A stretch of DNA of 64,000 bases from positions 885-64,884 of the IMG/VR virus record IMGVR_UViG_3300036790_000049; one strand, 5' to 3'. This DNA is from a virus. Below the pieces are notes generated by a model, which made no database searches, was not told where the DNA came from, and saw only the letters and a program-made list of their open reading frames with translations. The first letter of the stretch is position 1. Each line of letters begins with the position of its first letter. Position numbers and translations under genes: made by a program. Of the stretch, positions 1,021 to 61,366 are shown piece by piece.

Positions 1021-1135
1021 ACGGATAGGTAGCGTCGAATTCCGGAACTGCCGGAACTTACAGAATCTGGTGTTTCGGAATTCGGCGCGGTTTACCCGTC
1101 GGGTAGCCAAGATCAACAATCGGAGGTTAGGGAAA

Positions 1136-1321
1136 ATGCCAAGATCCAACAACCGCGCGCCTCACAACGTCCGCACGACGCGGAAGCACTCCACGTATGA
1201 GCGCACACAGCTTGCACGGGCAAAGACCGTCAGCGAAGCTCTCAAGGCTGCGCTCGAACGGCCGACGATGTTCATTGACGAGCCGGACATGATTTTCGGC
1301 ATGACCAAGACCGGCTCGTAA
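1136..1321 (+). CDS. small hypothetical protein carrying a copy of the Walker-B segment of the DUF3631 ATPase
   Basis: CGGAGGTTAGGGAAAATG start; C-terminus LERPTMFIDEPDMIFG nearly identical to LEQPTMFIDETDTIFG in 2675..4054. Confidence 0.65.
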   Translation: MPRSNNRAPHNVRTTRKHSTYERTQLARAKTVSEALKAALERPTMFIDEPDMIFGMTKTGS

Positions 1322-1479
1322 TGGGACCGTTCTGCTCATGCACCCCGAAACGGCTTTGCGACGCGTGCAAGCAACGCGGTTACAAGAATTCGCTTGCCGG
1401 GTATGCGGAACGCATTTATCCGCAGCAGGTGACCGAAGCGGAAATACAGGAATACGAGAAGAGAATGGCAAATGTCTAA
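1321..1479 (+). CDS. small Cys-containing hypothetical protein (52 aa, MGPFCSCTPKRLCDACK...)
   Basis: Read by hand; TAATG overlap with upstream gene; below the ORF-track cutoff. Confidence 0.5.
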   Translation: MGPFCSCTPKRLCDACKQRGYKNSLAGYAERIYPQQVTEAEIQEYEKRMANV

Positions 1480-1576
1480 GCAGCAAAAGCAGCAAAAGCG
1501 TTGGCAGGTGCGTTGGGTCGCAATAGCGATCGCAACGCTCATAACGATCATCGCGACCGCTCGCTACGGAGGATAG
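1472..1576 (+). CDS. small membrane peptide (34 aa)
   Basis: MSKQQKQQKRWQVRWVAIAIATLITIIATARYGG: basic N-terminus plus hydrophobic stretch; fills the gap between coupled genes. Confidence 0.45.
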   Translation: MSKQQKQQKRWQVRWVAIAIATLITIIATARYGG

Positions 1577-1834
1577 ATGAATCGCAAGATGACAAAGGGA
1601 ATCGCGCATTACATCCGCGATCGGCGGATGTGCACGCGGAACAATGCGCTTCGCGAGACAGAGCGATTCGCGGTAATGCTCGCAGATCGTTTCAAGCAGG
1701 AGAACCGGTATTTCGATACAGACCGGTTCTATTCGGAATGCGGAATTCCGCAGGACACGATTAACGAGCTAGCGCACGAGTTCTATTCCCGGGGTTATTT
1801 CGATCCCAAGGAAGATTGGCAGTCACTCATCTAG
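1577..1834 (+). CDS. hypothetical protein
   Basis: GGAGG RBS, TAGATG coupling. Confidence 0.7.
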   Translation: MNRKMTKGIAHYIRDRRMCTRNNALRETERFAVMLADRFKQENRYFDTDRFYSECGIPQDTINELAHEFYSRGYFDPKEDWQSLI

Positions 1835-1940
1835 GGAAACGGCACAACTGTGAGCGTCCGTGAAAATGAATTCACGGACGTTCACGGAGGATTCCGTTTC
1901 AATGATCGATTCGGAGACTCACAATCGGAGGTAGGGAAAA

Positions 1941-2348
1941 ATGAAGGCAAGAAAACTGACGCTCGCGGAATTCACGAGCGCAGTCATTACCGTGAGCGAA
2001 GCTCGCTATTCGGGAAACGTCATCGTTCACCCTGACAGCCACGACACAACGGGCGGCAATTCGGCCGTCCGTTTGGCGGTTACCGACTCGCACGGTTCCG
2101 GCAGTCGCACGAGTGCGAGTTACCGTCACGGGCCTTATGCGTGTTGGCACGCACACCGCGACGTTTACCGCGAGGTATTCCGGCGATTCCCGGACGCGGT
2201 ATTCACGGGCGGCCGGTATTGGAAGGTCACCTACGATGCCGCGACTTTCGAGAACGTGTTTCCCGAAACCCGTTACAAGAACATCGGCAGCGAAGTTTTC
2301 CACGTGATAATGCCGGAACTCTGCGAGTGTTTCGATTCGGAGATTTAA
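1941..2348 (+). CDS. hypothetical protein
   Basis: CGGAGGTAGGGAAAAATG start context; 135 aa. Confidence 0.7.
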   Translation: MKARKLTLAEFTSAVITVSEARYSGNVIVHPDSHDTTGGNSAVRLAVTDSHGSGSRTSASYRHGPYACWHAHRDVYREVFRRFPDAVFTGGRYWKVTYDAATFENVFPETRYKNIGSEVFHVIMPELCECFDSEI

Positions 2349-2582
2349 ATGACCGATATTACGCAGTGTTCGTGCGGAATTCCCAACAGTGCCAATTGGC
2401 ACACGCACGTGATACTCACCCGAATGGGCGAAACGACGTATTCCGATATCTACACGTGCGACGATCATTTCCCCGGATATCCCGACGGGTCAATGAGCAT
2501 GCCGGAATTGCTTGGCATGTTCCAATTCGACAATCCGGGAATGTGGTATGTGCTCGAATTCGAGAGCACACATTTGCGGTAG
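2349..2582 (+). CDS. hypothetical protein (Cys/His, possible metal binding)
   Basis: TAAATG coupling to upstream gene. Confidence 0.6.
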   Translation: MTDITQCSCGIPNSANWHTHVILTRMGETTYSDIYTCDDHFPGYPDGSMSMPELLGMFQFDNPGMWYVLEFESTHLR

Positions 2583-2591
2583 CCTGAAAAT

Positions 2592-2628
2592 GAGCGCCAA
2601 TCACTCACCACAATTGGCGCTCGTTTCC
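2592..2628 (+). terminator. intrinsic terminator-like hairpin
   Basis: GAGCGCCAAT...ATTGGCGCTC 10-bp stem followed by GTTTCC, 10 nt after a stop codon. Confidence 0.5.
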
Positions 2629-2674
2629 TAGCTATGGGCAATTGCTAGGACCCAACACAACGGAGGTAGGGAAC

Positions 2675-4054
2675 ATGACGAGCACCACAACTACAGGCAC
2701 CAAGCCACGCGCGGCTGTGACGTCCCCTAGGACGTCCAAGACCACATCCCCTAACACGGGTAAGGGTCGGGCCGCGAGCACGCGGCAGCGTGGACCTGAC
2801 AGCCGTACGGAAGCAGGCAAGCCAACTGCGGCCAAGACTGCCAAGACAGCCGAGACAGCCGAGCCGGTCGAGAAGGCAAACGCCAACTCAGATAACTTCG
2901 GCGCGACGGTTCTAGACGAGACACTCGCATTCCTTGAGCGTTTCGTGCTTTTCCCGTCAAAGGAAAGTGCAGTGATCGCCGCTATATGGTGTGCGCTTTC
3001 TCACGGTCTCGCGGCGTCAACGATTGCGCCACGGCTTTATGCGCAGTCCGGCGAACCGGGATCGGGTAAGACTCACCTGCTCGAAATGCTGTCACTTCTC
3101 TGCGCGAATTCGCGCTTGGAACTAGACCCGACCGGCCCGACCGTTGCAACGGTGATCGCGCTCGAACAGCCAACGATGTTCATTGACGAGACGGACACGA
3201 TTTTCGGCAAGTCGGGAAGCAACGCCGCGAAAGTGCAGCTTCGGTCGATTCTCAATTCCGGCTACAAGCGCGGCGCAATGCTTACCCGGAAGTCGGGTAA
3301 GTCGTACGAGTCGATTCCGGTATTCGCGATGATCGCCTTTGGCGGTCTTGGGCAGTTGCCGGATACGCTCATGTCCCGTTCATTTGTCATCCGCATGCGG
3401 AAGCGCCGCGAAACCGACCGGAAGATAGATGCTTTCCGGCCGCGCATGCATGAGGCGATCGGGAAAGCGACCGGTGCGGCACTCGGAGAATGGATCAAGA
3501 CGCAGCTTGTTGTCTTGGTCAACGCGTGGCCCGATATTCCCGAAGGGATCACCAACCGCGCGGAAGAGATCGCAATGCCGATGCTCGCTATTGCCGATGC
3601 GGCAGGCGGTCATTGGCCGGCCGATGCACGCGCGGCAGTCCGGAAGCTCTTGCTTGACGAGCAGGACGTTGCCGGGCCGACTCCGGTAGAGACATTGCTC
3701 GCGGACATCCGCGCAATGTGGCCCGAAGATGGGCGCACGCGGCTTAGCACGCAGGAACTCACGTTCCTGCTGTTCCAAGTCGAGTCATCGCCGTGGCGCA
3801 TGATCTGGGACCCCGTGAGCGCGTCTCGCGAGCTTTCCAACCTGCTAGCCGGAAAGCACATCGCGCCGCGAAAGGTCGATCTCGGTGGAGGCAAGAAATT
3901 GCAGGGATACCGCAAGGAAGACTTCGCTCTTGCTTGGGCATCAATGGATGCGAAAGCGGAAGCCGATAGTTCCGGAGGTTCCGGCAGTTCCGAGCAAAAC
4001 GAAGATGGGTCGTACACAACGGAGCCGGACATCATGCCGGACGATGACGAGTAA
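2675..4054 (+). CDS. DUF3631-family P-loop ATPase (replication-associated helicase-like)
   Basis: Walker A GEPGSGKT, Walker B MFIDETD, C-terminal NRAEEIAMPMLAIADAAGGHWPADARAA typical of DUF3631 proteins; strong RBS before ATG 2675. Confidence 0.75.
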   Translation: MTSTTTTGTKPRAAVTSPRTSKTTSPNTGKGRAASTRQRGPDSRTEAGKPTAAKTAKTAETAEPVEKANANSDNFGATVLDETLAFLERFVLFPSKESAVIAAIWCALSHGLAASTIAPRLYAQSGEPGSGKTHLLEMLSLLCANSRLELDPTGPTVATVIALEQPTMFIDETDTIFGKSGSNAAKVQLRSILNSGYKRGAMLTRKSGKSYESIPVFAMIAFGGLGQLPDTLMSRSFVIRMRKRRETDRKIDAFRPRMHEAIGKATGAALGEWIKTQLVVLVNAWPDIPEGITNRAEEIAMPMLAIADAAGGHWPADARAAVRKLLLDEQDVAGPTPVETLLADIRAMWPEDGRTRLSTQELTFLLFQVESSPWRMIWDPVSASRELSNLLAGKHIAPRKVDLGGGKKLQGYRKEDFALAWASMDAKAEADSSGGSGSSEQNEDGSYTTEPDIMPDDDE

Positions 4055-4085
4055 CAGCGGCAGCACCTAGGCAACCGTCAAGCCT

Positions 4086-4130
4086 AGCCGCGTACGTCTC
4101 TCACCAAGCCTGTGAGAGACGTACACGGCT
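4086..4130. terminator. long hairpin downstream of the DUF3631 gene
   Basis: 19-bp stem with one mismatch (AGCCGCGTACGTCTCTCAC / GTGAGAGACGTACACGGCT); no U-tract. Confidence 0.5.
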
Positions 4131-4182
4131 AAGTGTGACGGAACCAACCGCACACGAAACCGATCAACCGGAGGTAGGGGAA

Positions 4183-4638
4183 ATGACGGCACGTCAAATG
4201 ATCGCCAACTGGATTGTGTGGACTTCCGCAGCGCTGACCGTGATCGCGGTTGCTTTCGCTTGCGGCTACCTCGCACACAAGTGCCCGCGCAGCGATGAGA
4301 GCAACGCTAACAAGATCGTTGCGGCAAGCCACACAACCACCCGGACGAACCTCTGTTCGTGCGCTAGGCGCAAGCTCGGCGCGCTCGCGGCGGTCGCTGT
4401 CGAAACCGGGCTAGGCACTGTGAGCGCAAGCGGCGATCTGTCGCTGAACGATCACGCACACATCGCGGTGCTGCCGGACGGCAACCCGCACGTGTGGGCG
4501 AGGCAGTTGCGCAGAGGTCACCTCACAGAGCTAGCCCGTGCTGCGGCAGCGATTCACAACCGGGCAAGTGATCATGACTTTGCCCAAGCACTGTACGCAA
4601 CGGGCATGGCGCTAGCTCGCGGCAACTGCCGCGCGTAA
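4183..4638 (+). CDS. membrane-anchored hypothetical protein
   Basis: CGGAGGTAGGGGAAATG start; N-terminal hydrophobic helix. Confidence 0.65.
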   Translation: MTARQMIANWIVWTSAALTVIAVAFACGYLAHKCPRSDESNANKIVAASHTTTRTNLCSCARRKLGALAAVAVETGLGTVSASGDLSLNDHAHIAVLPDGNPHVWARQLRRGHLTELARAAAAIHNRASDHDFAQALYATGMALARGNCRA

Positions 4639-4977: not shown

Positions 4978-5122
4978 TCATCGTCTATAACCTGGATCAT
5001 CGGCTATATCCTGAATCATCGGCTATGACTTGGGTCAATACAGAGCCTCATCGGCTATACAGAGTCTCATCGGCTATAGCCCTAATAGAGTCTCATCGGC
5101 TATGACTTGGCTCATCGGCTAT
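4978..5122. repeat. seven TCATCGGCTAT direct repeats (iteron-like)
   Basis: Copies start at 4978 (one mismatch), 4997, 5016, 5048, 5067, 5093, 5112. Confidence 0.9.
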
Positions 5123-5512: not shown

Positions 5513-5643
5513 GCAAGAATCATCCTCCCACCAGGCAGGTTCCGCAAGTTCCGTTAGTTCCGGGCATAGCGAGAGCCCTGCACTCCCCAAGAATGCAGGG
5601 CTCGCACCAGGCAACGCCACGGTTGCCGTAGGGATCGGCTCGG

Positions 5644-10208: not shown

Positions 10209-12767
10209 TCAGAGGCCATTTCCTGGTGAATACACATCTAGTTTTATGCCGTAACGCATCCGTATTGTCGTTCTGCCCGATTTTGTCGACTGGTCTGGAC
10301 TATCAATAGATTTGGGCTTTGTGCTGGTCTCGGTGCGCTCGTTGACTTCACGTCCAAATACAACAGCGTTCTGCGGATCACCGTGCTTTCCAGCCTCATC
10401 CCACCAGTTACGATACTCCCGGTATAGCTCTGCAACCTCAACCGAGAAGCCTTCCCCGAGTGTGCACATCTCCTGAATAAACTGGTCTACTGGCGACATT
10501 GAGTCGTGGATTTCGGCTGTTATATTGCGCACGTCGTACGGTGCACCCTCTAGTCCGAGCTTCGCGTATAGTTCCCACCCGTGCACGAGCCACGCGAGCA
10601 CCGCACGGTAGTAATCGGGTGTGATCTTGCGCACGAGGTAGATATCGTCAGCCGCGCGTTCTATCTGCGTCACGAACGGAATTCCGGTGACACGGCGCTT
10701 TACCGCACGGTCAGCATGCTTGATCTCGGGCCACTCATTGGTGCACAGCACGGGAGTAAATGCTGGTATGCGTTCTGCGTACTCATTGCTGCGCATCCCG
10801 CGCGCCTCAATACGTCCTCCCGACGTCATAGCCTTGATCACGTCGGCGTGCAGATTCCACTCGGAACTGCCCTCTTCGGCTACTATGAGCCGCCTAGGCA
10901 TGGCCTTGAGGATGTCGGGGCGCGGCGCGTCATCGCGCTTGGTGCGGAACATCGAAAGCTGGAATGGCCCGGACAGTTCGGCACCAAGCGCATTCATGAT
11001 GATGTTGGTAAACGTGGTCTTGCCGGTGGACGTCGGCCCGGTGATAAAGAACAGCATCCGGTCGGGATTTCCGCCGAGCATGCAGTATCCCATCACACGC
11101 TGGAGATATTCCCGGTTCTCGCGCTTCGGCATCACGTCCTCTAGAAAGATATCCCAGTTAACATTCGTAGCGTCCGGATCGTAGTCGTGCGGTACCGCCA
11201 GCCTGCACATATCGCTACTGCGGTGCTCGCGGAACACTGCACCCCGGTCGCCCATCACGAGCGTGCCGTTCTTGAACGTCAGAACATCAGGATTGGCATC
11301 CATCTTCCCGATAGACACGGACATGCCCGTGATCTTGGCCGCGAGCCCGAGCGTTTCCCGGATCTTGGACGCGTTGAGCCCGTTCACCGCGAACGAGTGC
11401 ATGGCCTGCTGTGCTTTTTCATCAGTAATGCAGTCTGCCGACTTATGGAACTCCGCCGCCAGTTGGCGAAGCGCCCGCAGTGCCGCATCCTCATCGGCCG
11501 ACCAGACTCCCCGCTTAGCGTCCCAGTGTATCCACTGCTGCGTTTCCCGGACGTACAGCAGGCGTCCTTTGTTCAGCGCCGAGAACACGCGTGCGCGGGT
11601 ATCATCAGCGCGATCTAGCTCATGCAGTGCTACGACGTACTCTGGACCCACCTTAAGTTTCGCCAGCACACCCTTTAGCCACGGTATCCGGTCGGCACCG
11701 CGCCCGGTAGTCGGGTCACACGTGCATGTGAGCAGGATTCCCCCGGATTTCCCCTCGGTAATCGAGAAGCTGGGGTTGTTGTCCTCGTGCGTGCCGAGCG
11801 GACACGAAATGTGCACCTTCCCGGAAACGATCTCCGCCGTAGCGTCTGGCCGCACGGCCCTGACCGCCCGCACGAGCGCCGCCACCCTTGGTGAGACCCC
11901 TTCGGCACCCGTGGTGTCCGTCGCCTCCCACGCAGCGCGTGAGCGCGTTCCGGACCCTCCCACTCCCACTCCTGCCTCAGAGCCCGAACCCGGCACGACA
12001 TCGGGAAACGCTGCGTCGGTGTCGGGAAGCTGGGACTTGAGATCCTCGTACTCGACTGTCTCACACTGGCGCAGAGAACCGCCTTGCGCGAACAGGTCGC
12101 TCAAGTCGTTGACCCCGAACCACGGGGAGTCTGCCTCGTCCTCGGTTTGCAGCCATTCACCGGGGAGAGCCCGGATGACGATCCTGGATACCCCTAGGTT
12201 CTCCAGTTCGTCATACCGGGCAAGGACGTTGCGGATGCCGGTCAGATCCCGGTCGTAGTAGAGGCGGAACTCGCATTCTGCTCCTACCAGCAACAGTCGT
12301 TGACCTTCCGTCAGGGTTGAGGTGCGAGCCTCTCCCTGATGCACGGTGGTCGCGACGACATTGCCCCCGAGCTTGTCTGCATACCGCTGCGCGCAGTCTG
12401 CGTCCTTCTCCCCAGCGCACCAGAGTACGAGCCCGTGTGGATCACCTAGGACGGGCACGAGGTCTGGCATGTTCCACATGAGGTTGTCGGCAGCGGCGGG
12501 AATCTTGTGGCACCACCCTCCAGCAGCTAGCTTAGACCCTTCATGCTCCGGACAGAATGGCGTTGTCCGGTCTTCCTTCGGCACCTTGTGGCGATATGCC
12601 CACCGGTTCTCCGCGAACTTGGCGTGCACGAAAACCAGGTGGCCTTCTGCATCCGTCCACTTGTGTTCGCGCGGCTTGAACCCAGAACGTACGGAACCTC
12701 CGGAACTAACCGGAGATTGCCCCCGATCGGTTGCGTGAGCCGAGCTTTCCGGTGTACTATCGTTCAC
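10209..12767 (-). CDS. primase-helicase (Toprim-like + Zn-binding + D5/P4-family SF3 helicase)
   Basis: Walker A GPTSTGKT, Walker B LIVAEE, D5_N NPDVLTFKNG, motif C TPVLCTN; N-terminal AGEKDAD and YDRD; CPLGTHEDNNPS Zn motif. Confidence 0.85.
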   Translation of the reverse strand: MNDSTPESSAHATDRGQSPVSSGGSVRSGFKPREHKWTDAEGHLVFVHAKFAENRWAYRHKVPKEDRTTPFCPEHEGSKLAAGGWCHKIPAAADNLMWNMPDLVPVLGDPHGLVLWCAGEKDADCAQRYADKLGGNVVATTVHQGEARTSTLTEGQRLLLVGAECEFRLYYDRDLTGIRNVLARYDELENLGVSRIVIRALPGEWLQTEDEADSPWFGVNDLSDLFAQGGSLRQCETVEYEDLKSQLPDTDAAFPDVVPGSGSEAGVGVGGSGTRSRAAWEATDTTGAEGVSPRVAALVRAVRAVRPDATAEIVSGKVHISCPLGTHEDNNPSFSITEGKSGGILLTCTCDPTTGRGADRIPWLKGVLAKLKVGPEYVVALHELDRADDTRARVFSALNKGRLLYVRETQQWIHWDAKRGVWSADEDAALRALRQLAAEFHKSADCITDEKAQQAMHSFAVNGLNASKIRETLGLAAKITGMSVSIGKMDANPDVLTFKNGTLVMGDRGAVFREHRSSDMCRLAVPHDYDPDATNVNWDIFLEDVMPKRENREYLQRVMGYCMLGGNPDRMLFFITGPTSTGKTTFTNIIMNALGAELSGPFQLSMFRTKRDDAPRPDILKAMPRRLIVAEEGSSEWNLHADVIKAMTSGGRIEARGMRSNEYAERIPAFTPVLCTNEWPEIKHADRAVKRRVTGIPFVTQIERAADDIYLVRKITPDYYRAVLAWLVHGWELYAKLGLEGAPYDVRNITAEIHDSMSPVDQFIQEMCTLGEGFSVEVAELYREYRNWWDEAGKHGDPQNAVVFGREVNERTETSTKPKSIDSPDQSTKSGRTTIRMRYGIKLDVYSPGNGL

Positions 12768-13760: not shown

Positions 13761-14321
13761 TTACATTCCGCTCGGGTCCGGCCGTCCGAAACCGTTCTGC
13801 GAGGGAGGGTAGGTACCGGCAATGCGCCGTTCGCGACCAAGAGTAAACTGGTCCTCCGGACGGCGAGGATCACGGCGCGGCAGCACTTGCCGGGGCGCGA
13901 CGATGCGTTCCGGAAGTTCCGGAGGTACCGAGTACGGACGCGGACGCTGTGGACGCTGCCGTGGCGGACGGGCACCGTTCACCGTAACAGTTCGCGGCTG
14001 GGCAAGCTCGGTAGGAATGATCATGCAGCTTTCGGTGTGCGCGTGTCCCGGCTCGTCGGCCGACAGGCAGGTCATGCCATCGCCGGGGTCAGCGATCTGT
14101 GCTGGAGCGTAGAGCGCCGGAACATTCTCGGGCCGTCCCCGGATCTGCCCGAGTGTCCACGAGCCACGTACCGTCTGGTCTCTGACCGCACGGCACTTTC
14201 CGCAGAACCACAGCACGGTCGTGATGATCACCGTGTCTTGTGTCCTCTGATCGGTGAGCACGCCGGGCTGAACTCCCACGGCGATCCGGAACTTGTCGCG
14301 GCATCCGCACAAAGGCTGCAT
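13761..14321 (-). CDS. hypothetical protein (Cys pairs, Pro/Arg-rich tail)
   Basis: GGGAGG RBS before ATG. Confidence 0.55.
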   Translation of the reverse strand: MQPLCGCRDKFRIAVGVQPGVLTDQRTQDTVIITTVLWFCGKCRAVRDQTVRGSWTLGQIRGRPENVPALYAPAQIADPGDGMTCLSADEPGHAHTESCMIIPTELAQPRTVTVNGARPPRQRPQRPRPYSVPPELPERIVAPRQVLPRRDPRRPEDQFTLGRERRIAGTYPPSQNGFGRPDPSGM

Positions 14322-15816: not shown

Positions 15817-15882
15817 CGTCCGATCCTACACGCTCCGTTTACCCTTGCGGAAGAGGGTTCCGGAGGTTCTGGATGTTCTGGT

Positions 15883-17002: not shown

Positions 17003-17086
17003 TGTTCCGAAGGTACTCCCCTATCTCCCTTCACACAACCCTTTCGGGAAAGGTTCCGGAAGTTCTGGGAGTTCCGGTTAGTGCTG

Positions 17087-17656
17087 TTAGCCGTTCATCG
17101 TCCACTTGCCGTCGGTGGGGTAGTTGACCCCCGGACTTGAGACGACTTCCAGGAACTTGTTGGACGAGTCCCAGACGATGCCCCACGCCTTCCCGTTGCT
17201 CTCGGTTGTGGTAGCACCCTTGCTGATGATCACACCGAACGTGCCGTTGGTCGGCGCGTTGCTGAAATCCTCGTCCGTGTTGCCGTCGCCGCCGGTACAG
17301 GTCAGTTCGATCACGAACCCGGAACCCGGCTCCTCCGGAGATGCCCAGTCCAGGCACAGCTTGGAGAAGTTGTCCTGAATGTGCCAGCAGGTACCGCCGT
17401 TGCAGTTGTTGTCACCCTCGTTGATCAGGGTGTACGTCTGCGGCGTGCCGGTGGTGAATGCTGTCACGCAGCGGGCGTCTCCGCCACCAGTGCAGGAGTT
17501 GGACGTGCCCTGAACGCTCTCGGCTGCCAGCCCGACAATCGTGTAGCTGGTGGAAGCCGATGCGGGTCCGGCGACTGCCACCGCAGCACCGATACCGGCA
17601 AGCGGCACGATGAACGCGGCGGCAATGACGGCCAGCCTTCGCCTAATTCTCAGCAT
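17087..17656 (-). CDS. secreted protein, possible ricin-B/beta-trefoil lectin-like domain
   Basis: Signal peptide ending PASA; W.I.D..SKLCLD...VIELTC pattern; 6 Cys. Confidence 0.55.
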   Translation of the reverse strand: MLRIRRRLAVIAAAFIVPLAGIGAAVAVAGPASASTSYTIVGLAAESVQGTSNSCTGGGDARCVTAFTTGTPQTYTLINEGDNNCNGGTCWHIQDNFSKLCLDWASPEEPGSGFVIELTCTGGDGNTDEDFSNAPTNGTFGVIISKGATTTESNGKAWGIVWDSSNKFLEVVSSPGVNYPTDGKWTMNG

Positions 17657-22645: not shown

Positions 22646-23369
22646 GTGAGGCTGGTTCCACCCCGTTGCGTGCCCAGTCGTCGGCCGACATGACGGCCTG
22701 CTTCTGGAACTCGGCATACTGCGCGACCGGAATCCACCCGGAGCGGACTGCCTTGCTTCGGTGCATTTCGCCGTGCTCGTTGAAATGCGCGAGTAGTTCT
22801 AGAATCACGATTTGCAGGTGCACGCGGTATTGCATTTCCTTGTCGGCCCGGAGCCGTTCCGCGTCGATCTTCTCGCGCAGCCCGGACGGCCCCTCGCCGG
22901 GAGGAACTCCGTGCCAGTCGTCCCGAGCCCGTACGGTGTCGCCCCATGCCTCAGTGACCATCGCGAGGAACGAGCCGAGAACGAAGTCTGGTGTATTGCT
23001 GTAGTTCTCGATCGAGTACCGGTTGATCACCTCGGCCAGTGCGTCGTGCAATGGCATCTTCGGTTCTGTGCGCAGCATCGGCTCGGACGGTGACATGGCC
23101 ATATAGGCGTCCGCCGTCTCCGCGTGCACGTCCTTTCCGGCCTGCACGGCTTCGGCATCGGTTCCGTTAGTTCCGGAAGTTCTGGGGTTCTTCATTGCTT
23201 CCTCCTCGTTTATGTACCGAATCCACTCACGGTCACCCGATGTGAGCTTCTCGGATACCTGGATCATCGCGCCTTGCGGTGAGTAAGCGCGCTCCCTGAT
23301 GCTCATCCGGTGATCGCCGCACTCGTCCCGGATTGTGACCGTGAACAACTGGAGCTTAGGCTTCACCAT
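22638..23369 (-). CDS. hypothetical protein (two in-frame RBS-associated starts)
   Basis: GGAG RBS at ATG 23369 and GAGGAGG RBS at internal ATG (MKNPRT); INRYSIENYSNTPDFVL domain. Confidence 0.6.
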   Translation of the reverse strand: MVKPKLQLFTVTIRDECGDHRMSIRERAYSPQGAMIQVSEKLTSGDREWIRYINEEEAMKNPRTSGTNGTDAEAVQAGKDVHAETADAYMAMSPSEPMLRTEPKMPLHDALAEVINRYSIENYSNTPDFVLGSFLAMVTEAWGDTVRARDDWHGVPPGEGPSGLREKIDAERLRADKEMQYRVHLQIVILELLAHFNEHGEMHRSKAVRSGWIPVAQYAEFQKQAVMSADDWARNGVEPASHD

Positions 23370-27637: not shown

Positions 27638-28074
27638 GTCTCCATCTTGGAGATAGCACGGGTCCGCGAAGTAAGCGTGACGTGATGACCGCCTCCTGGA
27701 GTCCAGCTATGCAGGAGTTCATGCTCGTGCGGTTCCGGCAGGAAAAACGAGACCGAGTGACCGTCTCCGTACGTGGCGGTTACCTCCACTGACGCCACGG
27801 CTGCCGACAGGGCTCGAAGTTCCGAAGGTTCTGGAGGTACCGGCTCATTCGGCGGTACCGGCTCATTCGGCGGAACGTCGGGTACGCGGCCCCGAGCTTG
27901 CGTACGCGGGCCTGGCTTGCCCGGTGGTGGCCCGGGTACCGGCTGCATCGGTGCGCCTCTCTGCCGCTGCTGCCGTAGCCGCTGAATCTCGTCTCCGAAC
28001 GCACCGTCAACCGGAGCCGGACCCGTCACCACTTCCCCCGGCTCGTTCCCCGTCCCGGGTGACTGCTTGCTCAT
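27625..28074 (-). CDS. Pro-rich hypothetical protein
   Basis: GGAGCAGGAG RBS; PPNEPV tandem (18-bp duplication). Confidence 0.6.
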   Translation of the reverse strand: MSKQSPGTGNEPGEVVTGPAPVDGAFGDEIQRLRQQRQRGAPMQPVPGPPPGKPGPRTQARGRVPDVPPNEPVPPNEPVPPEPSELRALSAAVASVEVTATYGDGHSVSFFLPEPHEHELLHSWTPGGGHHVTLTSRTRAISKMETWPE

Positions 28075-29634: not shown

Positions 29635-29700
29635 AAGCTAGCGGGCCTGGACCCCTAATTACAAGGGGGTTCCACAGGTTCCGCTAGTTCCGCTCGCTGC

Positions 29701-32994: not shown

Positions 32995-33416
32995 CAGTCT
33001 CTACCCTCCCCCGCATCGTCCGGAACTGGTGGAACCTCCGGAACTTCTGGGACTTGGGCAACGACTAGCTCGCCGTCGTCGTCAAGGTCAAGCGTGTACA
33101 CGCCGTGTGGATGACTATCCCACGACCAGCGGGAACGATGCGCTGCCGCGTTGACCGGGCAGTCAAAGAGGTGGCCGTCCCTTCGGCAGCGTGGCGGGTG
33201 CTGGATTGTCCACCCGTCGTCATCGAACTTGATGAGGTGGCCCTCGTCCGGGTCGGCCGGAATGATCCATCCCTGGTCTACGAGCGTACTCATCGCACCG
33301 AGGAATGACTGATGCCGCCGCTTGGATATGTTCGCCCACGGGTAGCGCGTGCCGAAGATGTCTTGCTGGTACTCGTGGAACAACTCCGCAAGTCGCTCCG
33401 CATCTGGCGTTGCCAA
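32994..33416 (-). CDS. hypothetical protein
   Basis: AGGGAGGAG RBS before TTG 33416. Confidence 0.55.
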   Translation of the reverse strand: MATPDAERLAELFHEYQQDIFGTRYPWANISKRRHQSFLGAMSTLVDQGWIIPADPDEGHLIKFDDDGWTIQHPPRCRRDGHLFDCPVNAAAHRSRWSWDSHPHGVYTLDLDDDGELVVAQVPEVPEVPPVPDDAGEGRD

Positions 33417-34296: not shown

Positions 34297-36219
34297 CTAC
34301 GCAAGCTGATGAGAAGCGGCGTGGCGGATTATTTCAACTCCCCGGCTCCCGTCTAGGACTTCCTTGCACGCTCCCTCCCTAGCTCCGCAGCGTACGGCTA
34401 TGTCGGCCTCAATCGATTCGAGCGAGCGGAGGTAGTACACCGTGACCGGAACCCGTCCGGCCTCCCTCGAAACCCGGTGCGCGCGGTCCTCAACCTGTAG
34501 CTGCTCGTCTGGAATCGACGTCTCGTCAATGATGATCACGACGTCGGCAGCGTCAAGCGTGATCGACTCGCCACCGGCTTTCGTGTTGATCATCACGACC
34601 CGGTGCTCGTCATCTGGATTGCTGAATTCCCGGACGATATCCTCTCGCGTGCGCTGCTTTGTCTCGCCGGTGATTACGTAATTCGGGAAACCAGCATGCG
34701 CGATTGCCCCGGAGAACAGGTTGATGACCTGCGTAAACTGCGACGCAATGATCACCTTTCCCTCGTTACCGGTAAGGGATGGCAGATTGTCAAGAATCCA
34801 GTTTAGCTTGTTCGATGGTTCCCGTGGCGCAAAGCGCACGCCTGCATTGTCCGAGATCATCACGCCGTAGGTAGTGGATAGCTGCTTGAGCCGGGTCAGT
34901 TCCGCGAGCACGCCGTTGGCCATGAGAATGCCGTCACCGACTTGTGCCCGTGCGTCCTCTGCCATATCCTGGTAAGCGCGGGCCTGCTGCGATTCCATCG
35001 GCAGCCATATCCCGAGCGGGGAATCCGGGACGTCCGGATATAGCGGCGTGCCTGCGTACAGCTTCGGTGGCAGATCCTTGGCCACCTCCGCCTTGGTGCG
35101 GCGCAGCACGTACGGAGCCAGCATCCTGTCGAATGCCGCGCGAGCATCCGGCCGCACATCCTCGCCGGACACTACTAGCCCGTAGTCGCCCTCTTCTACC
35201 TCGAAATACATCTTGGCGTAACGCCAGTAAGACGTAAACACATCGGGACGCAGCCAGTTAAGCGTTCCCCACATGTTTATCACCTTGCCGCGAAATGGCG
35301 TCCCGGAAAGTGCGAGCTTGAGACCGCCCTCTTTCACCGGCAGCCGCATAGCTCCCAATCTAGTCTGGCTTATCTTGGCAGACTTGGAACCGTCCTCGTG
35401 ATGCATGACCGAGAGATGCGACTTGCCGATGAGCGCGTTATGGCTCTCGTCAAAGACAACCGCATCCCAGTCGCTCTCAAACAGGTACCTGAATTCCGGC
35501 GACTCGTAGCGCTGGTTTTCTACGTAGTCCGTTCGCATCCGGACCATCTCCACATTGCATATCAGTATGCACATCTTGTCCGGGAACTCTTGGCATGCTA
35601 TGTAATACTCCGACATGGTAAAGTCCCGCTGCGCCCGCGTGCCGTCGCACACAAACGTCTGGACGTTACCCCCGAGCCATCGGTGCGCCTCACGTTCCCA
35701 AACGGCCCTGAGCGCCGTTTTGCGGCAGAACACGAGCACCCGGTGGGCGTGGGCTAGGGTGAGTGCCCCGAGCGTCTCTAGGGTCTTCCCAAGGCCCGGC
35801 TCGTCGGCATTGAGCGTTGACCCGCCGTCAAGCGCGAACTTGGCCCCTACTGCCTGAAACGGGCGGTTGCTATAGGCCATGTCCAGAAGTGGCGCTAGTT
35901 CCGCTAGTTCCGGAAGTTCCGCCGAGCCTGCCATGCGAAGCGTGGTCTGGTTATTCTCCCTGATCACCTCTGCCTTTGCCCACGCGGATAGCTCGGGTCC
36001 GATCTCCAGCATGTCCCCGAACACGAGCCGCAGTTGCCTGCACACCTCAAGGTCAAGCGGGTAGGTCCAGCCTAGGAACTTGTCCCGGTAGCCGGTCTTG
36101 TCCCATAGCGCAGAGACACCGGGTACCTGCTTAGCCATGTCCTTACCGGCTCCGCCGAGCCATGGCACCTTAGCAAGTATCCGGTTGTCTCCGTGCCGTT
36201 CGATATGAACGGTCGGCAT
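34297..36219 (-). CDS. SNF2-like (SF2) DNA helicase
   Basis: ADEPGLGKT, VFDESH, LALSGTP, LRRTK, Q.EDRAHR. Confidence 0.9.
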   Translation of the reverse strand: MPTVHIERHGDNRILAKVPWLGGAGKDMAKQVPGVSALWDKTGYRDKFLGWTYPLDLEVCRQLRLVFGDMLEIGPELSAWAKAEVIRENNQTTLRMAGSAELPELAELAPLLDMAYSNRPFQAVGAKFALDGGSTLNADEPGLGKTLETLGALTLAHAHRVLVFCRKTALRAVWEREAHRWLGGNVQTFVCDGTRAQRDFTMSEYYIACQEFPDKMCILICNVEMVRMRTDYVENQRYESPEFRYLFESDWDAVVFDESHNALIGKSHLSVMHHEDGSKSAKISQTRLGAMRLPVKEGGLKLALSGTPFRGKVINMWGTLNWLRPDVFTSYWRYAKMYFEVEEGDYGLVVSGEDVRPDARAAFDRMLAPYVLRRTKAEVAKDLPPKLYAGTPLYPDVPDSPLGIWLPMESQQARAYQDMAEDARAQVGDGILMANGVLAELTRLKQLSTTYGVMISDNAGVRFAPREPSNKLNWILDNLPSLTGNEGKVIIASQFTQVINLFSGAIAHAGFPNYVITGETKQRTREDIVREFSNPDDEHRVVMINTKAGGESITLDAADVVIIIDETSIPDEQLQVEDRAHRVSREAGRVPVTVYYLRSLESIEADIAVRCGAREGACKEVLDGSRGVEIIRHAASHQLA

Positions 36220-37917: not shown

Positions 37918-37948
37918 AACGTGGTTCCGGAAGTTCTGGAGGTTCCGG

Positions 37949-38134
37949 CTACTCGGGATCGGTGTACGCGTTGATCCCGATCGTGACGTCGGTGCCGGGG
38001 ATGACCTGGTTGCCGCCCGTGGTTCCGACCATCATTTTCTTGCCGGACGCGGACGGCCCGAGCCGCTTGGTCAGGTCGATAGTGATGGTCGCCGTCTTCT
38101 TGTCTGACGACACGGAGATCTTGACATTCTTCAT
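37949..38134 (-). CDS. small conserved phage protein
   Basis: AGGGAGG RBS; IDL....GPSASGK...V.TT.GN. Confidence 0.75.
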   Translation of the reverse strand: MKNVKISVSSDKKTATITIDLTKRLGPSASGKKMMVGTTGGNQVIPGTDVTIGINAYTDPE

Positions 38135-39168: not shown

Positions 39169-39278
39169 GCCTAGCTCCCTTCTCTCGGGGTCTAGCCTAC
39201 CCGTCCCAGTTCCGTTAGTTCCGGTGGTACGGAGTCCAGACACGCCCGGTGCTCGGTCTCTTTGTCCCTCTATGCGGT

Positions 39279-39594: not shown

Positions 39595-39633
39595 TTATGT
39601 CTGCCTAGTTCCGGTAGTTCCGGATGTTCCGGG

Positions 39634-45261: not shown

Positions 45262-45639
45262 CTACTCATCCCGCTGGGCAGGTTCCGGTAGTTCCGCTAG
45301 TTCCGGTCTCTGCTGCGAGTGCCCGTTGAGCTTGTCGTTCCGCTGCAACCGGTAGATCTGGAAAAAGAACGTAACCGACCGCACCGGTATCAGGCAAAGA
45401 ACGACGATCTCAAACCAGCCGAACCAGATAGACGTGATCGGCACATTGAATAGCCGGTGGATGACGGACGGCAGCAGTGCCAGCGATGCCAGCCAGTCAA
45501 GCGTTACGAGCGCCGGGCCATACGGTGCCTTCCTCCAATCCCAGATAATGAGCAAGACTACGGGAAGCAGCGCAGTAGACCAGAAGGCAAACTCAACCGC
45601 CCACTGCGCGATATGTCCCTGTAGCACTAGCTGTCCCAT
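45262..45639 (-). CDS. multi-TM membrane protein (putative holin)
   Basis: Three hydrophobic segments; W.W...P.G pattern. Confidence 0.6.
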   Translation of the reverse strand: MGQLVLQGHIAQWAVEFAFWSTALLPVVLLIIWDWRKAPYGPALVTLDWLASLALLPSVIHRLFNVPITSIWFGWFEIVVLCLIPVRSVTFFFQIYRLQRNDKLNGHSQQRPELAELPEPAQRDE

Positions 45640-57472: not shown

Positions 57473-58222
57473 TTACCTACGACCGATCATGTCCCGGAAC
57501 GCGTCGTTGCCGGAGAACGTCCCAGTTTGACCGGTCGGTGTCCCGCCCGGCCGAAGAGATTCGATCGGCCTGTTCCCTCTCGGGAAGCCGTTGCCCCGGA
57601 TACCAGGGAGCCCGTTACTGCCCGTCATCTCCTGCACCTTGGCGTTGACCGCCTCAGTGATCGCATTCGACAGAGTTTCGGCGCGAGCACCGATCTCATC
57701 TTCGGTCCCGGAACCCAGGAAGTCGATGAACTCGGGTCCGAGGTTGTGCCCTGCCGCCGCCAGTAGCCGGTGCGACTGCGCCTGCGCCTCGCGAGCGTCC
57801 ATCTGTGCCCGCGTAGCCGCTTCCTGCGCCCGCTGCAATTCGGACTTCTGAGCGTCCTCCATGTCCTGGAGCTTTTTGACCGCAGCGTTACCGGCCTTAG
57901 CGCGCTTTTCCTGCTCTCGCGCGGCTAGCTGTAGCTGCCGTGACCGGGCACGCTCGTTCTCCAGCTGCTGCTCGATCGAAAGACCCGCGTTCGGGTCGGC
58001 TGTACCAGTGCCGTTGTCGTTCCCGGACTGGTTGTCCGAACCGGAGTTGTCGCCAAGCAGCGCGCCAAGTGCCGCGTTGCCGTCGAATGCATCTCCGCCA
58101 CCGTCGCCGGTACCTGCGGAACTTCCGGAACCTCCGTTAGTTCCGCCCTGGTTACCTTGCGGGTCTTGCGCTCCTGCGCCAACGCCAGGGTTACCCTGGT
58201 CACCGGCTCCTGTGTGAGACAT
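57473..58222 (-). CDS. capsid scaffolding protein
   Basis: Gly/Asp-rich N-terminus, coiled coil SELQRAQE, RP.E.LR.G C-terminus; position before capsid. Confidence 0.8.
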   Translation of the reverse strand: MSHTGAGDQGNPGVGAGAQDPQGNQGGTNGGSGSSAGTGDGGGDAFDGNAALGALLGDNSGSDNQSGNDNGTGTADPNAGLSIEQQLENERARSRQLQLAAREQEKRAKAGNAAVKKLQDMEDAQKSELQRAQEAATRAQMDAREAQAQSHRLLAAAGHNLGPEFIDFLGSGTEDEIGARAETLSNAITEAVNAKVQEMTGSNGLPGIRGNGFPRGNRPIESLRPGGTPTGQTGTFSGNDAFRDMIGRR

Positions 58223-58309
58223 CTTTGCCTGCCTTCTGCATTACGCTTATTGGCTGGAGGACACTATAGCGCACGCTAGCCCGTTCCGGGCACCGTGCCT
58301 GCGGAAAAG

Positions 58310-58585
58310 CTACTTTGAGCCGCTCGCGGTAACCGTTTTCGTGGAACCGTCGGAACTCCAGTTGTCTGGAATCATCGACGTGAACCCGAGCCGCTTCGCT
58401 TCCTTCATGATGAACTTGCGGATCGTGTTGTGATTACCGCTGCCCCTGCCCACTGCCAAGATGGCATTGTGCAAGTCCTGCCGGTTGCGGATGTAGTAGC
58501 GGGGATTTCCCCCGGGCTGAGCCGGTGCCATCGCATGGCCCTGACTCTTGAGGGTACGCAACTGATCCGCAGTTGGATTGGCCAT
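58310..58585 (-). CDS. small head-module protein
   Basis: Y.I.N..DL.NAI.A.GR......IRK.I...A..LG....IPD.W. Confidence 0.7.
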   Translation of the reverse strand: MANPTADQLRTLKSQGHAMAPAQPGGNPRYYIRNRQDLHNAILAVGRGSGNHNTIRKFIMKEAKRLGFTSMIPDNWSSDGSTKTVTASGSK

Positions 58586-58596
58586 GTCTCACCTCC

Positions 58597-59406
58597 CTAT
58601 TGGCCTAGTTGGAGACTTCCCTTATTGTCCCAGTACTTCCGCCATGCCTTAATGGCGGCTTTGCCCGAGAGACCGCGCGTTGCGCGCTGCCATTCCTGGG
58701 CCAAGTCCTTGCTGGTTAGGGATTTTACATCCTGCTTGCGGAAAACGGGAGCCGCAGTGCACGCGCAGTGATTATGCGCCTCGAAACCAGCCGACTGAGC
58801 AGTTTTGTAGACCGCTCCACGAGATGCCAGCATCGCGCAGAAGTAGCACGGGTTACCGGAGGTGATCCGGGCCCACGCAATGGCCTTCGGATCGGCCTTA
58901 ACCGTGTCCAGGACAACGCCACGGCCTGCCGACAGGGCCATCCGGCTCATCGCGCCTGCCAGATTGACTCCTCCGCGCTGGAATGCCTGCTGTAGCGGCT
59001 GACCCTGCTTGATGTCGTGCAGTAGCCGCCCCGGACCCGTCATGTCGAGTACCTGACTAGCTACCGGGAGGTTTAGCGCGGGGGAAGTATTGTCAAATCG
59101 TGGCAGATCCTGGGTAATTCCGGCAAGCTCGCGCGACATTGTGTAGAAATCCTGCGCCGACAGTGCCGACTGGCGGAAAGCTGACTGCAATTCGGCCATC
59201 ATCGCGGCGCGAACGGCAGGCCAGGACGATTTGATCTTGGAAAGATCGAGATGACCCCAAAGTCCGAGCACGTCACGCACGAGGATGGCAGCCAAAACGG
59301 CCTCAGCGAGCCGGTGAGACGTCGCGGCTTGGGAGGCTATACCCGTGGTAGCCCCGGCCGAGATCGCCCCGCTGTGAGGATTTGAGAGCCTTACAGGGAC
59401 AGTCAC
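58597..59406 (-). CDS. MuF-like / capsid maturation-associated protein
   Basis: R..L..GR; WAR.T....C.FC.MLASRG.VY; H..C.C. Confidence 0.8.
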   Translation of the reverse strand: MTVPVRLSNPHSGAISAGATTGIASQAATSHRLAEAVLAAILVRDVLGLWGHLDLSKIKSSWPAVRAAMMAELQSAFRQSALSAQDFYTMSRELAGITQDLPRFDNTSPALNLPVASQVLDMTGPGRLLHDIKQGQPLQQAFQRGGVNLAGAMSRMALSAGRGVVLDTVKADPKAIAWARITSGNPCYFCAMLASRGAVYKTAQSAGFEAHNHCACTAAPVFRKQDVKSLTSKDLAQEWQRATRGLSGKAAIKAWRKYWDNKGSLQLGQ

Positions 59407-59588
59407 CTCCGACCTGCACCTTTACCCCGGCCCAGACGCGATACGCGGATAAGCGTGTACTTATCTGCTTTACCGCCCGGACGCGGCGTCTTGACCTGCG
59501 AGCTTCCAGGTCCGGGTTCCGGGATGAGCGGATCGGTGTCTTCCGATCTCTTGACGTACTGGTCGTACACGCCGCCTGCCATCGTCAC
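59403..59588 (-). CDS. small hypothetical protein
   Basis: GTGA overlaps on both sides. Confidence 0.5.
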   Translation of the reverse strand: MTMAGGVYDQYVKRSEDTDPLIPEPGPGSSQVKTPRPGGKADKYTLIRVSRLGRGKGAGRR

Positions 59589-61366
59589 ACTCCCTGCTCG
59601 CGCGCCTCGTACTGCTGGTATGAACCGGACGCCGGGGTCTGCTGCGGAGTCGTGCTTTGCAGTCCCTTGCTCTGTGCCTTCTCGATGAGGTCGGCCAGTT
59701 CCTCAAGCACGCCGGGCTGAGCGAGCGAAGCCTTCCAGCGTGCCACATCCTGAGCGGAGACGCCGGGAATGCGGGACCAAAGCTCGGGGGCGGGAACGCC
59801 TAGCATCTGGCTCATCTTGCTGAGCGCATCCACCGTCGCGGCGAACGCGCGTGCGGAGGTGTCGCGCCATATCGGCTGAGCGCCGTTGTCCTTCGCGCTC
59901 TTGTCGTCACCTGCCGCGTGTGAGGCCAACTGGAAAGACTGCTTCCACGGCTCGTCTAGCGTGCCCTGTAGCTCCTGCACCTTGCGGTCCAGTCCGTCAC
60001 GCGCTGCCGCGAGCGCTTCCGCCGACAGGTTGGCTACAAGTCCCAGGAGGTGGTACGGGGGAACTTGCCCGATAGTGGACATGTGCCGGATCGAGGCTTC
60101 TATCGAGTTGAGGTAGTCGCCTAGCTCGGTCTGCGAGAACTCACCGAACTTGGTTCCCGGGTCTTCCGCCATCCAGAGCCGGTCGATACCTGCGCGGAAC
60201 GGCTCTTTGGCACGGCCGGTTTCGTCGGTCGGGTCGAATCCGGAAACCCACCGCTGCCGGAACGCGCCGAACTGCTCCGCGATGAGCAGGTCGAACGTGG
60301 TCATGTTGATCTGATCCTGCAACGGCATGAGCGGCTCTACCTCGCCCATCACGTCTAGCTCGCCGTCTAGGTCGATCTCGTGCTGGAACCTGACGATCGG
60401 GCAGACCCCGAGACCGTGCTCGTCCACCCGGCTCGCGCCGTACGGCAGGATGTCATCGGAGTTCGGCCACCGTGGCGCGCGTCCCTGGTCTTCTGCGATC
60501 ATCGTGTACCGGTTGGTGTCGTCGTAAAGCTGGATCACCCGGAACTTTCCCTTGGTCGTGTTCATCGGGAACTCTTCCAGAGCGTAAATCGGCCACTCGT
60601 CGTCCGACTCGTCCGCATAGAAAGCGGTGAGCCGCTTGGGACTGACTGGCTTCATGACCGCTGACAACTGTTCCGCGTCCGGCTGTGACCCGGCCGTCTC
60701 CTCGTTGAACATCTCGGCTGGCAGGATCTTCATATAGCTCAGCCCGTACTTCATGACCGACCGGTACAGGCCGTGCTGCCGCGACATCATCCGGTTGGCC
60801 AGGAAGATCTTCCAGGGTGCCGAAGTCGTCTCCTCGGTCGTGTCGTCAAACAGGAGGTCGGTGGGGATCACCACGGTTGCACCGGGCGTTCCCTGCTGAG
60901 CCGGAACCTGCGGAACCTGCGGAACCGAGGTCTGGTCTAGTGACACGCCGGGGTGATTCGCGAGTGCTTGCGCTCCGGGGTCGGTGGGCGCCACGGCTGG
61001 CGGAGCGGGCATTCCCGGAGTCGGCGCATTCGGGGGTTGTCCTGGTGGCGGCGGTGCGGTTCCGGGAGTTCCGGGGGTTCCGTCCACGTTGACACGGATG
61101 TTCTTGGGCATCGGCCCCGGACTCATCCGGTAGCCGTCAAGGTGCAGGTTCTCGGCAATGACCGAGACTACCAGCGGCAGGAAGTTGACCTTTGCCCTGT
61201 CGCGAATCCAGTTGTACTCGGTCTTCGCACCTCGCGGCGTGTACACCGAGTCGTGGTGTCCCTTGTAGTACCGGTTGATCTTGTTCATCCGGTGAAGCTC
61301 GCGTTGCCGGTAACGCAGGATACTCGCCGCAACCTGGGGCACTTGATCCTGGGGTAGCGTTGCCAT
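59585..61366 (-). CDS. portal protein (SPP1 gp6-like) with Pro-rich insertion
   Basis: YY.G.H; N.LPLVV; GE.EPL..LQD.IN; F.QRW..G; KFGEF.Q.EL; NLSAEAL; WRDT..R. Confidence 0.9.
   Translation of the reverse strand: MATLPQDQVPQVAASILRYRQRELHRMNKINRYYKGHHDSVYTPRGAKTEYNWIRDRAKVNFLPLVVSVIAENLHLDGYRMSPGPMPKNIRVNVDGTPGTPGTAPPPPGQPPNAPTPGMPAPPAVAPTDPGAQALANHPGVSLDQTSVPQVPQVPAQQGTPGATVVIPTDLLFDDTTEETTSAPWKIFLANRMMSRQHGLYRSVMKYGLSYMKILPAEMFNEETAGSQPDAEQLSAVMKPVSPKRLTAFYADESDDEWPIYALEEFPMNTTKGKFRVIQLYDDTNRYTMIAEDQGRAPRWPNSDDILPYGASRVDEHGLGVCPIVRFQHEIDLDGELDVMGEVEPLMPLQDQINMTTFDLLIAEQFGAFRQRWVSGFDPTDETGRAKEPFRAGIDRLWMAEDPGTKFGEFSQTELGDYLNSIEASIRHMSTIGQVPPYHLLGLVANLSAEALAAARDGLDRKVQELQGTLDEPWKQSFQLASHAAGDDKSAKDNGAQPIWRDTSARAFAATVDALSKMSQMLGVPAPELWSRIPGVSAQDVARWKASLAQPGVLEELADLIEKAQSKGLQSTTPQQTPASGSYQQYEAREQGV

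Follow-up and report, generated by a model that had tools for sequence, protein, structure and literature searches.

Dispersed through the genome of the uncultured soil phage G000 is a 27-bp element, here called the triple box, which consists of three 9-bp direct repeats and is probably the cognate DNA site of the phage's own RepAM-family replication initiator/helicase (gene at 2642..4054, plus strand), multiplied to about 22 places. The DNA analysed, referred to as the window, is 64,000 nucleotides long (60.6 % GC) and corresponds to bases 885–64884 of a 65,151-bp virus record (IMG/VR record IMGVR_UViG_3300036790_000049). Positions are given in window coordinates unless stated otherwise. A RepAM site located at its own gene is of a known kind. 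The new part is the dispersal to approximately 22 arrays, compared with one locus in the integrative and conjugative elements of actinomycetes (AICEs) and in the related phage G019.

Each array is made up of three 9-bp units of the form nCCGGAACy. Among 63 units, the consensus base is found 40 times at position 2 (C), then 60 (C), 53 (G), 63 (G), 59 (A), 63 (A), 62 (C) and 59 (Y) times at positions 3 to 9, respectively. Positions 3–9 are thus near-invariant and positions 1–2 are loose. The site is therefore asymmetric, and the palindrome TTCCGGAA was ruled out as the true site, since positions 9, 1 and 2 are too loose for it. An earlier note, prepared from the sequence alone, had listed 21 copies, and a 3 × 9-bp array with a GGAAC/GTTCC core is present at every one of the coordinates it gave. 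However, five of the copies that read on the plus strand register better one base earlier, namely at 12681, 33019, 33556, 58106 and 60900. A 22nd copy, at genome position 159–185, lies outside the window.

A search on the 9-bp register returned 10, 19 and 28 hits in the whole G000 genome at 0, 1 and 2 core mismatches, respectively. The earlier note had proposed a comparison with shuffled sequence, and the same search of 30 dinucleotide-preserving shuffles yielded no comparable arrays (0, 0 and 0.17 hits). By size, the G000 arrays include 19 triples, no quadruples and one degenerate run of five units, against 0.15 triples expected. Boxes were absent from 22 whole related phage records (~1.4 Mb, similar GC) and from 75 of 79 loci anchored on related helicases, and no alternative tandem triple of 7–12 bp was found in the box-less relatives. 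The density is about 340 boxes per Mb in G000 versus roughly one per Mb in a 9.5-Mb actinomycete metagenome-assembled genome (MAG).

These comparisons bear on the explanation that the copies have no common function and are low-complexity coding repeats (GTx, PEx, SGx) typical of high-GC actinomycete genes, which is hardly credible. Nearly all of the bacterial-genome matches to the pattern, among those listed, are indeed perfect coding microsatellites, but they have identical units, unlike the phage boxes. In G000, the units differ from one another, a single DNA word is read in four frames and eight copies are non-coding. Taken for the whole set, this explanation is refuted: the shuffles and the related-phage control speak against it, as do the copies in non-coding DNA. 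A host regulon was also rejected, because the bacterial matches listed are almost all such microsatellites and true boxes were found in MAG G006 only in the integrative element C349, described below. A reading of GGAAC as the −35 element of an extracytoplasmic function sigma factor was discarded, as GTT is not found (by eye) at the spacing required. The 50-bp motif of Vardy (PMC9671010) is unrelated to the boxes.

The gene at 2642..4054 encodes a DUF3631 protein (Pfam PF12307, E=3e-33). According to Ghinet et al., DUF3631 is the same as RepAM, which initiates replication of pMEA300 (PMC3218068). The pMEA300 RepAM protein binds 8-bp words that are repeated where its own gene ends, at the 3′ end (te Poele et al. 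2006, reviewed in PMC2440964). These repeats are the putative origin, and a regulatory function of RepAM or of xis, which lies downstream, is hinted at by their location (PMC2440964). In G000, a three-unit box is found 60–87 nt before the repAM stop codon. The earlier note had recognised no repressor in the window that would explain the array and had listed the DUF3631 gene only among the carriers of a box. That the window has no recognisable binder is not supported, as the gene belongs to the RepAM family and has a box at its own 3′ end.

An AlphaFold2 model of the protein (pLDDT 83) shows an ATPase core and a helical domain, and towards the C-terminus a winged helix (residues 365–425), followed by the box-encoded linker and an acidic tail in a low-confidence segment. 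Its best structural matches are MCM, ORC/Cdc6, vaccinia D5, PriRep1 and the NrS-1 helicase, and DUF3631 homologues are often fused to Toprim, zf-CHC2, PrimPol or DnaB-N domains. The winged-helix domain probably reads the CCGGAACy word in each of the three units.

Homologues that share 45–67 % identity with the G000 protein (L371, 67 %; L373, whose contig is that of L137; and L374) each carry an antisense box within the final 15–90 nt of the gene, and in G009 a box is located 268 nt downstream of repAM. After a conserved AW motif, the tail of G000 RepAM is homologous to those of L377 and C349. In most other close DUF3631 homologues, this DNA is translated in another frame and gives a terminal VP[ED]VP[ED]VP, as against SGG/GSG in G000 and P0124. 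The valines in the tails of L373 and L374 are all encoded by GTT, a minor codon (16 %). Apart from this rare codon, codon usage was not used as evidence, as the test is circular when applied to the boxes. In a tblastn search with the DUF3631 protein, only one of 50,697 GenBank phage records matched (a Pseudomonas phage). A DUF3631 gene is, by contrast, found on many uncultured soil contigs of 60–70 kb.

The same design is found in other elements that encode RepAM. The Streptomyces AICE plasmids L377 and L378 have the gene order PrimPol-DUF3631-HTH-Int, where HTH is a helix-turn-helix protein and Int an integrase, and the tail of their repAM carries (nTCCGCTAC)x3, which is GTCCGCTAC-TTCCGCTAC-CTCCGCTAC. 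An inverted triple follows ~190 bp downstream of the tail triple, before xis, with single copies in between. The AICE word TCCGCTAC and the phage word TCCGGAAC have 6 of 8 positions in common. In the box-less related phage G019, (GACTAC)x3 is found on a 9-bp register in the DUF3631 tail, and this word occurs only once in its 70 kb. The three-unit, 9-bp layout is therefore a trait of the RepAM family, as judged from the comparison made here and not from te Poele et al. 2006. The motif in the wing of the winged helix is QGYR or WGYR with GGAAC, KGYY with GCTAC and KGWH with GACTAC, and this difference of the wing with the word, seen in three lineages, is only suggestive.

The integrative element C349, on a contig (L248; L369/L370, 12380–18700) of Streptosporangiaceae MAG G006, encodes a 1043-aa primase-like open reading frame (ORF), RepAM (DUF3631), an excisionase-type HTH protein and a tyrosine integrase, and a tRNA-like sequence adjoins the integrase gene. 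It contains five boxes with the same GGAAC word, of which one is in the sense orientation in the DUF3631 tail, two are inverted just past the stop codon and two are in the primase-like ORF. DUF3631 is the sole protein common to C349 and G000. C349 also hints at the host range of the GGAAC word. Two convergent pairs of boxes in G000 (33556/33772 and 60900/61058) have the arrow pattern and spacing of the AICE arrays. Separately, we note that an unrelated IMG/VR contig of 3.9 kb, L090, has an AT-richer non-coding cluster of AAGTTCCGA units at 600–870. It includes two triples on the 9-bp register together with single and inverted copies, lies upstream of a Zn-finger primase-like ORF and resembles a classical iteron origin with nearly the same word.

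We infer that the initiator is the most likely protein to have the box as its cognate site, because the RepAM family binds repeats at the 3′ end of its own gene, a box is found at that place in G000, and the AICEs and G019 share the layout. The phyletic pattern among whole records agrees with this, with strong DUF3631 matches in both complete box-bearing records (G000 and G009) and, among the box-less records, none in 19 of 22 and weak ones in 3 of 22. Some points weigh against this assignment. The box-bearing fragments L136, L033, L087, L119, L139 and L141 fall outside the count of whole records. One RepAM homologue with 53 % identity, P0125 (L372), has no box. The array in the G000 repAM tail is inverted relative to the arrangement in the AICEs, C349 and G019, and neither an inverted partner nor a nick-like CTTGAT/ATCAAG motif was found within ~90 nt of 3968, the nearest other boxes being 1041 (2.9 kb off) and 5538. 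A separate factor could also read the same GGAAC word.

The boxes are not placed at random with respect to genes. Eight of the 21 fall within the 9 % of the window that is non-coding, and 13 of 21 are at most 60 nt from a gene boundary, compared with 5.35 expected (P=6e-4); the median distance to a boundary is 40 nt versus 171. The earlier note had put about 15 of 21 copies with GGAAC in the transcribed sense, and the count is 15 of 21. For the intergenic copies in G000 it is 8 of 8. Approximately 12 intergenic copies in G000 and its relatives begin −3 to +8 nt from the upstream stop codon, and the loose position with which the box opens is often also the last base of the stop codon. Most coding copies fall in the N- or C-terminal tails of proteins. 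Seven of 42 boxes (~5 of them independent) are followed by TTGnnn (+4 to +9) and TA(G)nnT (+26 to +28), which would make up a candidate Streptomyces-type sigma-A promoter with its −35 hexamer 3 nt past the box, and L087 has a perfect TTGACA-N17-TAGTGT. A generic scan for Escherichia coli-type promoters was uninformative for TAGnnT promoters, and a simple hairpin finder, which missed known hairpins, was relied on for the strongest cases only.

Other copies depart from this promoter arrangement. Hexamers at the fixed spacing are absent at the remaining intergenic boxes, box 39208 is downstream of a promoter (TTGCTA-N18-TATAGT) rather than upstream, and terminator-like hairpins follow boxes 37923, 39607, 45281 and L143-3996. 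At 37923, the promoter-like hexamers coincide with the arms of the hairpin, and intergenic antisense copies are found in relatives (L136 12841 and G009 391). As the promoter spacing and the hairpins each fit only some copies, the only universal features are the box, its polarity and its position at a boundary.

The polar distribution is what would be expected if the boxes were operators of a dedicated phage transcription factor that is unrelated to RepAM and acts on RNA polymerase at boundaries in the manner of stoperator-binding repressors or P1 C1, with the repAM copy as one more target. The uniform orientation of intergenic copies, the many that abut stop codons and the fixed −40 promoter spacing of some agree with this, and three tandem short repeats suit cooperative binders of the ribbon-helix-helix type. 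However, Pfam and PHROGs scans of ~65 proteins, which do not represent every ORF, revealed no HTH, ribbon-helix-helix, repressor or integrase protein, and phyletic profiling of the 10 kb either side of the helicase gene found no gene specific to box-bearing loci. This explanation also leaves unexplained the box at the 3′ end of repAM and the 3 × 9 design at that place in unrelated AICEs, and we consider it unlikely, though the strongest of the alternatives. Individual candidate proteins were also rejected. The small gene downstream of repAM, taken at first as conserved, is not homologous across phages, and P0121 (rich in Ala, Lys and Pro) and the DUF6011 protein are both also found in box-less loci and belong to no informative family.

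Further box carriers were found in the IMG/VR and JGI data from which the relatives were taken (L033, L136/L140, L087, L119, L137, L139, L141, L143 and L371). Several are fragments, and the L136 and L033 contigs come from one sample and possibly from one phage. G000 has 22 arrays; the L136/L033 contigs have at least 11 over 33 kb, the L137/L373 phage has at least 5, and G009 has 5 register hits (~4 arrays). The earlier note had suggested a search for conservation in related phages, and in L136, L033 and L371 boxes are kept at each of the 11 orthologous sites, where the core positions are 89–100 % identical and the loose positions and 60-nt flanks are near background. Of the six possible frames, the coding copies use four (GTx, PEL, SGx/GSx and VPx), and these box-encoded peptides account for every such period-3 peptide repeat in the G000 proteome. 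Orthologous genes can read one and the same site in different frames, as in the repAM tail (SGG versus VPE), and the antisense copies at 58106 and 60900 are conserved in relatives. The view taken in the earlier note, that the DNA rather than the peptide is conserved, is borne out by the core that is kept while the flanks drift, by the frames that differ between orthologues and by the antisense copies. As far as comparison of sequences can tell, the same three observations support its proposal of a genome-wide protein-binding array at the level of DNA. No support was found for the roles in nucleoid organisation or packaging that it also considered.

The conserved antisense copies also argue that the functional form is double-stranded DNA rather than mRNA. 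If the functional form were RNA, (nCCGGAACy)x3 in mRNA would be the target of a nuclease or RNA-binding protein with control over the termination, processing or stability of transcripts, as in HutP/TRAP-type or nut-like systems. The sense orientation of the intergenic G000 copies, their start at −3 to +8 nt from stop codons and the strong hairpins that several of them precede would suit such a role. However, 6 of the 21 copies lie antisense, with conservation in relatives wherever it was tested (58106, 60900 and the 33019/33556 region), the convergent pairs and the AICE arrays use both orientations, and there is neither a match to Rfam nor covariation supporting a fold. A site in RNA is thus improbable, and more so than a dedicated transcription factor.

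Mobility or recombination, with the boxes as footprints or linkers left by a 27-bp in-frame mini-insertion or as shared boundary sequences for module exchange, is very improbable. This phage group is highly mosaic and the boxes are at boundaries; 27 bp preserves the reading frame, and the portal pair lies within an insert that is missing from other portals. Against this, the box in the helicase gene replaces homologous residues with no indel and is kept only in the closest relative, so boxes appear to arise in place and not via insertion. Copies vary at all loose positions and are thus not recent copies of one another, there are no target duplications, and an indel of three genes between G000 and L136 lacks two flanking boxes.

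With the triple box taken as the cognate site of the RepAM-like initiator, the following scheme can be drawn. In ordinary RepAM elements, such arrays are found at a single locus, within the 3′ end of repAM or beside it, as putative origin. In the G000 clade, it would have been written into about 22 places through sequence change in situ, not insertion. The convergent pairs at 33556/33772 and 60900/61058 may be origin-like loading sites, and the solitary polar copies at boundaries may couple the initiator to transcription units, some as an upstream promoter element (−40 to −66) and others as a barrier just past stop codons, ahead of terminators. A transcription-linked role of the solitary copies is suggested by their polarity, adjacency to stop codons and fixed promoter spacing, and the evidence for it is mixed. 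More tentatively, and with some doubt, the initiator may have turned into a genome-wide organiser, with RepAM sites placed, in frame where coding DNA required it, at the boundaries of most non-structural transcription units and an origin-like pair inside the portal gene. One protein would then coordinate replication starts with transcription starts and stops, for example so that forks and RNA polymerase travel in one direction.

Initiators of the RepAM type have received little study and have so far been linked to one site at their own gene. If our assignment holds, the G000 clade has an initiator site multiplied into a regulon-like array, which would make it possible to test how initiators come by global regulatory roles, as with DnaA. 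The boxes also illustrate how protein-binding sites can be fitted into the coding DNA of a dense phage genome, as use is restricted to the four frames whose translation is a flexible linker, and is mostly in the tails of proteins. They also supply candidate origins and promoters for a group of soil actinophages that is uncultured.

The individual copies are as follows, with the strand on which the box reads in brackets. In the left arm, box 1041..1067 (+) is intergenic and in the sense orientation, has a degenerate third unit and is conserved in L371. Box 3968..3994 (−), in the C-terminal tail of the RepAM-like gene, is read SSGGSGSS; its position is homologous to that of RepAM-binding arrays, and counterparts are found in L371, L373, L374, G009 and C349. 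Box 5538..5564 (−), also conserved in L371, is intergenic where the two transcription arms converge, just past a strong hairpin. Between these two, ~1 kb from repAM, there are TCATCGGCTAT repeats (4978–5122), and repAM, boxes 3968 and 5538 and these repeats together make 3.9–5.6 kb a candidate origin region.

Box 12681..12707 (+) is antisense in codons ~20–28 of the D5-type primase gene, and box 13906..13932 (−) is in the sense orientation within a weakly supported ORF (13761–14321). Two intergenic copies follow genes closely. Box 15856..15882 (−) abuts the stop codon of 15883–16830 and is followed by TTCCGC (15852–15847) and TAGGAT (15828–15823) at promoter spacing, and box 17052..17078 (−) is 8 nt past the stop of 17087–17656. 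Codons 4–12 of a gene that starts at ATG 23192 (MKN-PRTSGTNGT) contain box 23160..23186 (−). Box 27818..27844 (−), in the sense orientation within gene 27625–28098, is read EPVPPEPSEL. Directly upstream of it (in sense), at 27845–27885, is a tandem duplication of CCGAATGAGCCGGTACCG (x2), which shares the first unit of the box (GCCGGTACC). Box 29668..29694 (−) is intergenic, 6 nt past the stop codon of a gene for a protein like single-stranded DNA-binding protein, followed by TTGTAA (29664–29659) and TAGCTT (29640–29635), and is orthologous to L136 16257.

Box 33019..33045 (+) is antisense in the C-terminal tail (VPEVPEVPP) of a gene that ends at 32994. This gene (32994–~33450) was not called and is in the frame of ORF 32994–34067; it would encode a plausible globular protein with an acidic VPEVPEVPPVPDD end, a tail of the same kind as those of many RepAM homologues. 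It is missing from L136, which instead has an intergenic four-unit antisense box next to TTGACA. The first convergent pair, 33556–33582 (+) and 33772–33798 (−), is 215 bp apart inside a gene for an A/K/P-rich protein and has an origin-like layout, with the arrow pattern of the L378 and C349 arrays. The gene (33529–34224) comes directly after that for the SNF2 helicase, and its 231-aa product, in which a long tail rich in Ala, Lys and Pro (histone-H1/HupB-like) follows a small globular domain at the N-terminus, matches phrog_34140 (function unassigned). The copy in the SNF2 helicase gene itself, 35897..35923 (−), is read AELPELAEL.

Box 37923..37949 (−) overlaps the stop codon of 37949–38134 and is followed by a hairpin (37917–37891) whose arms carry TTGCCT and TAGGCT. 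Box 39208..39234 (−) is degenerate and is in the leader of the DUF6011 gene, and box 39607..39633 (−) is intergenic and abuts the stop codon of 39634–41328, and a large hairpin follows it. Between these two, in a 390-nt gap from the tail genes to the DUF6011 gene, is the promoter mentioned above (39308–39279), which is the best match to an E. coli-type promoter in 27–46 kb and likely the start of the non-structural operon. Box 45281..45307 (−), in the C-terminal tail (PELAELPEP) of the putative holin gene 45262–45639, is followed by a strong hairpin.

In the structural genes, box 58106..58132 (+) is antisense in codons ~30–38 of the scaffold gene and is conserved in L033. The second convergent pair, 60900–60926 (+) and 61058–61084 (−), is 157 bp apart, with both copies in a ~90-aa Pro-rich insert of the portal protein and both conserved in L033. 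This low-complexity insert (residues ~80–173; portal gene 59585–61366) is absent in L119, L122 and all GenBank relatives, and the L087 portal has a different insert at its position. When the inserts of G000 and L033 are compared, the two boxes are the sole conserved part.

The minus-strand arm of G000 encodes, in order, the terminase and portal (~63 to 59.6 kb), capsid, tape measure, tail, SNF2 helicase, DnaE and D5-type primase. A short opposite arm (15–4638, plus strand) holds the DUF3631 gene. Genes were called crudely as ORFs and the calls were then refined via homology. The portal is 39–44 % identical to portals of Curtobacterium and Arthrobacter phages. No nucleotide relatives of G000 were found among GenBank phages, and neither Rfam families nor tRNAs were found in the window. 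Among public sequencing runs, G000 was found in one soil metagenome DNA run and in no RNA run. A tail protein with a Spherulin4 (GH135-like) domain (41344–43068) is conserved in L136, and a separate Rv2525c-like glycoside-hydrolase protein (6003–6959) is conserved in L371.

Among known systems, the pMEA300-type elements are alike in having a DUF3631/RepAM gene whose coding sequence contains, towards its 3′ end, repeats of a short identical word. There, ~10 words form one cluster within ~250 bp that is hairpin-capable and has a pC194-like nick motif, CTTGAT (PMC2440964). In contrast, the 65 kb of the tailed phage G000 have ~22 separate arrays of three units, most of them solitary and polar, at boundaries and in unrelated genes, and its repAM copy is inverted and partnerless.

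Iterons placed in frame in coding DNA, inside an initiator gene or beside it and often in a flexible linker, are found in the lambda origin in gene O, in N15 repA and in P4 alpha with ori/crr. These are confined to the initiator locus, whereas the boxes are also in the portal, scaffold, primase and helicase genes. KorB of IncP plasmids and P1 C1 each act on at least 12 operators at varied positions relative to promoters, some of them intragenic, but the proteins differ, the sites are palindromic or single and asymmetric, and there is no link to an initiator.

The stoperators of cluster A mycobacteriophages (L5 gp71, Bxb1 gp69) comprise ~20–30 asymmetric sites found genome-wide, mostly in short intergenic gaps and oriented with transcription. 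The earlier note had drawn this analogy, and it is apt for the polar, intergenic distribution but not for membership. Each stoperator is a single site of 13 bp, to which a temperate phage's immunity repressor binds, whereas the boxes are three 9-bp direct repeats, half of them in coding DNA, their candidate reader is a replication protein, and neither an HTH repressor nor an integrase was found in the families scanned.

DnaA boxes offer a further parallel, as a 9-bp asymmetric word is read by the C-terminal DNA-binding domain of an initiator ATPase, with a cluster at the origin and dispersed copies at promoters, at which DnaA serves as a transcription factor. The protein family and the word are unrelated to those of G000, and DnaA boxes are mostly single or irregularly spaced, whereas the triple boxes are fixed triples.

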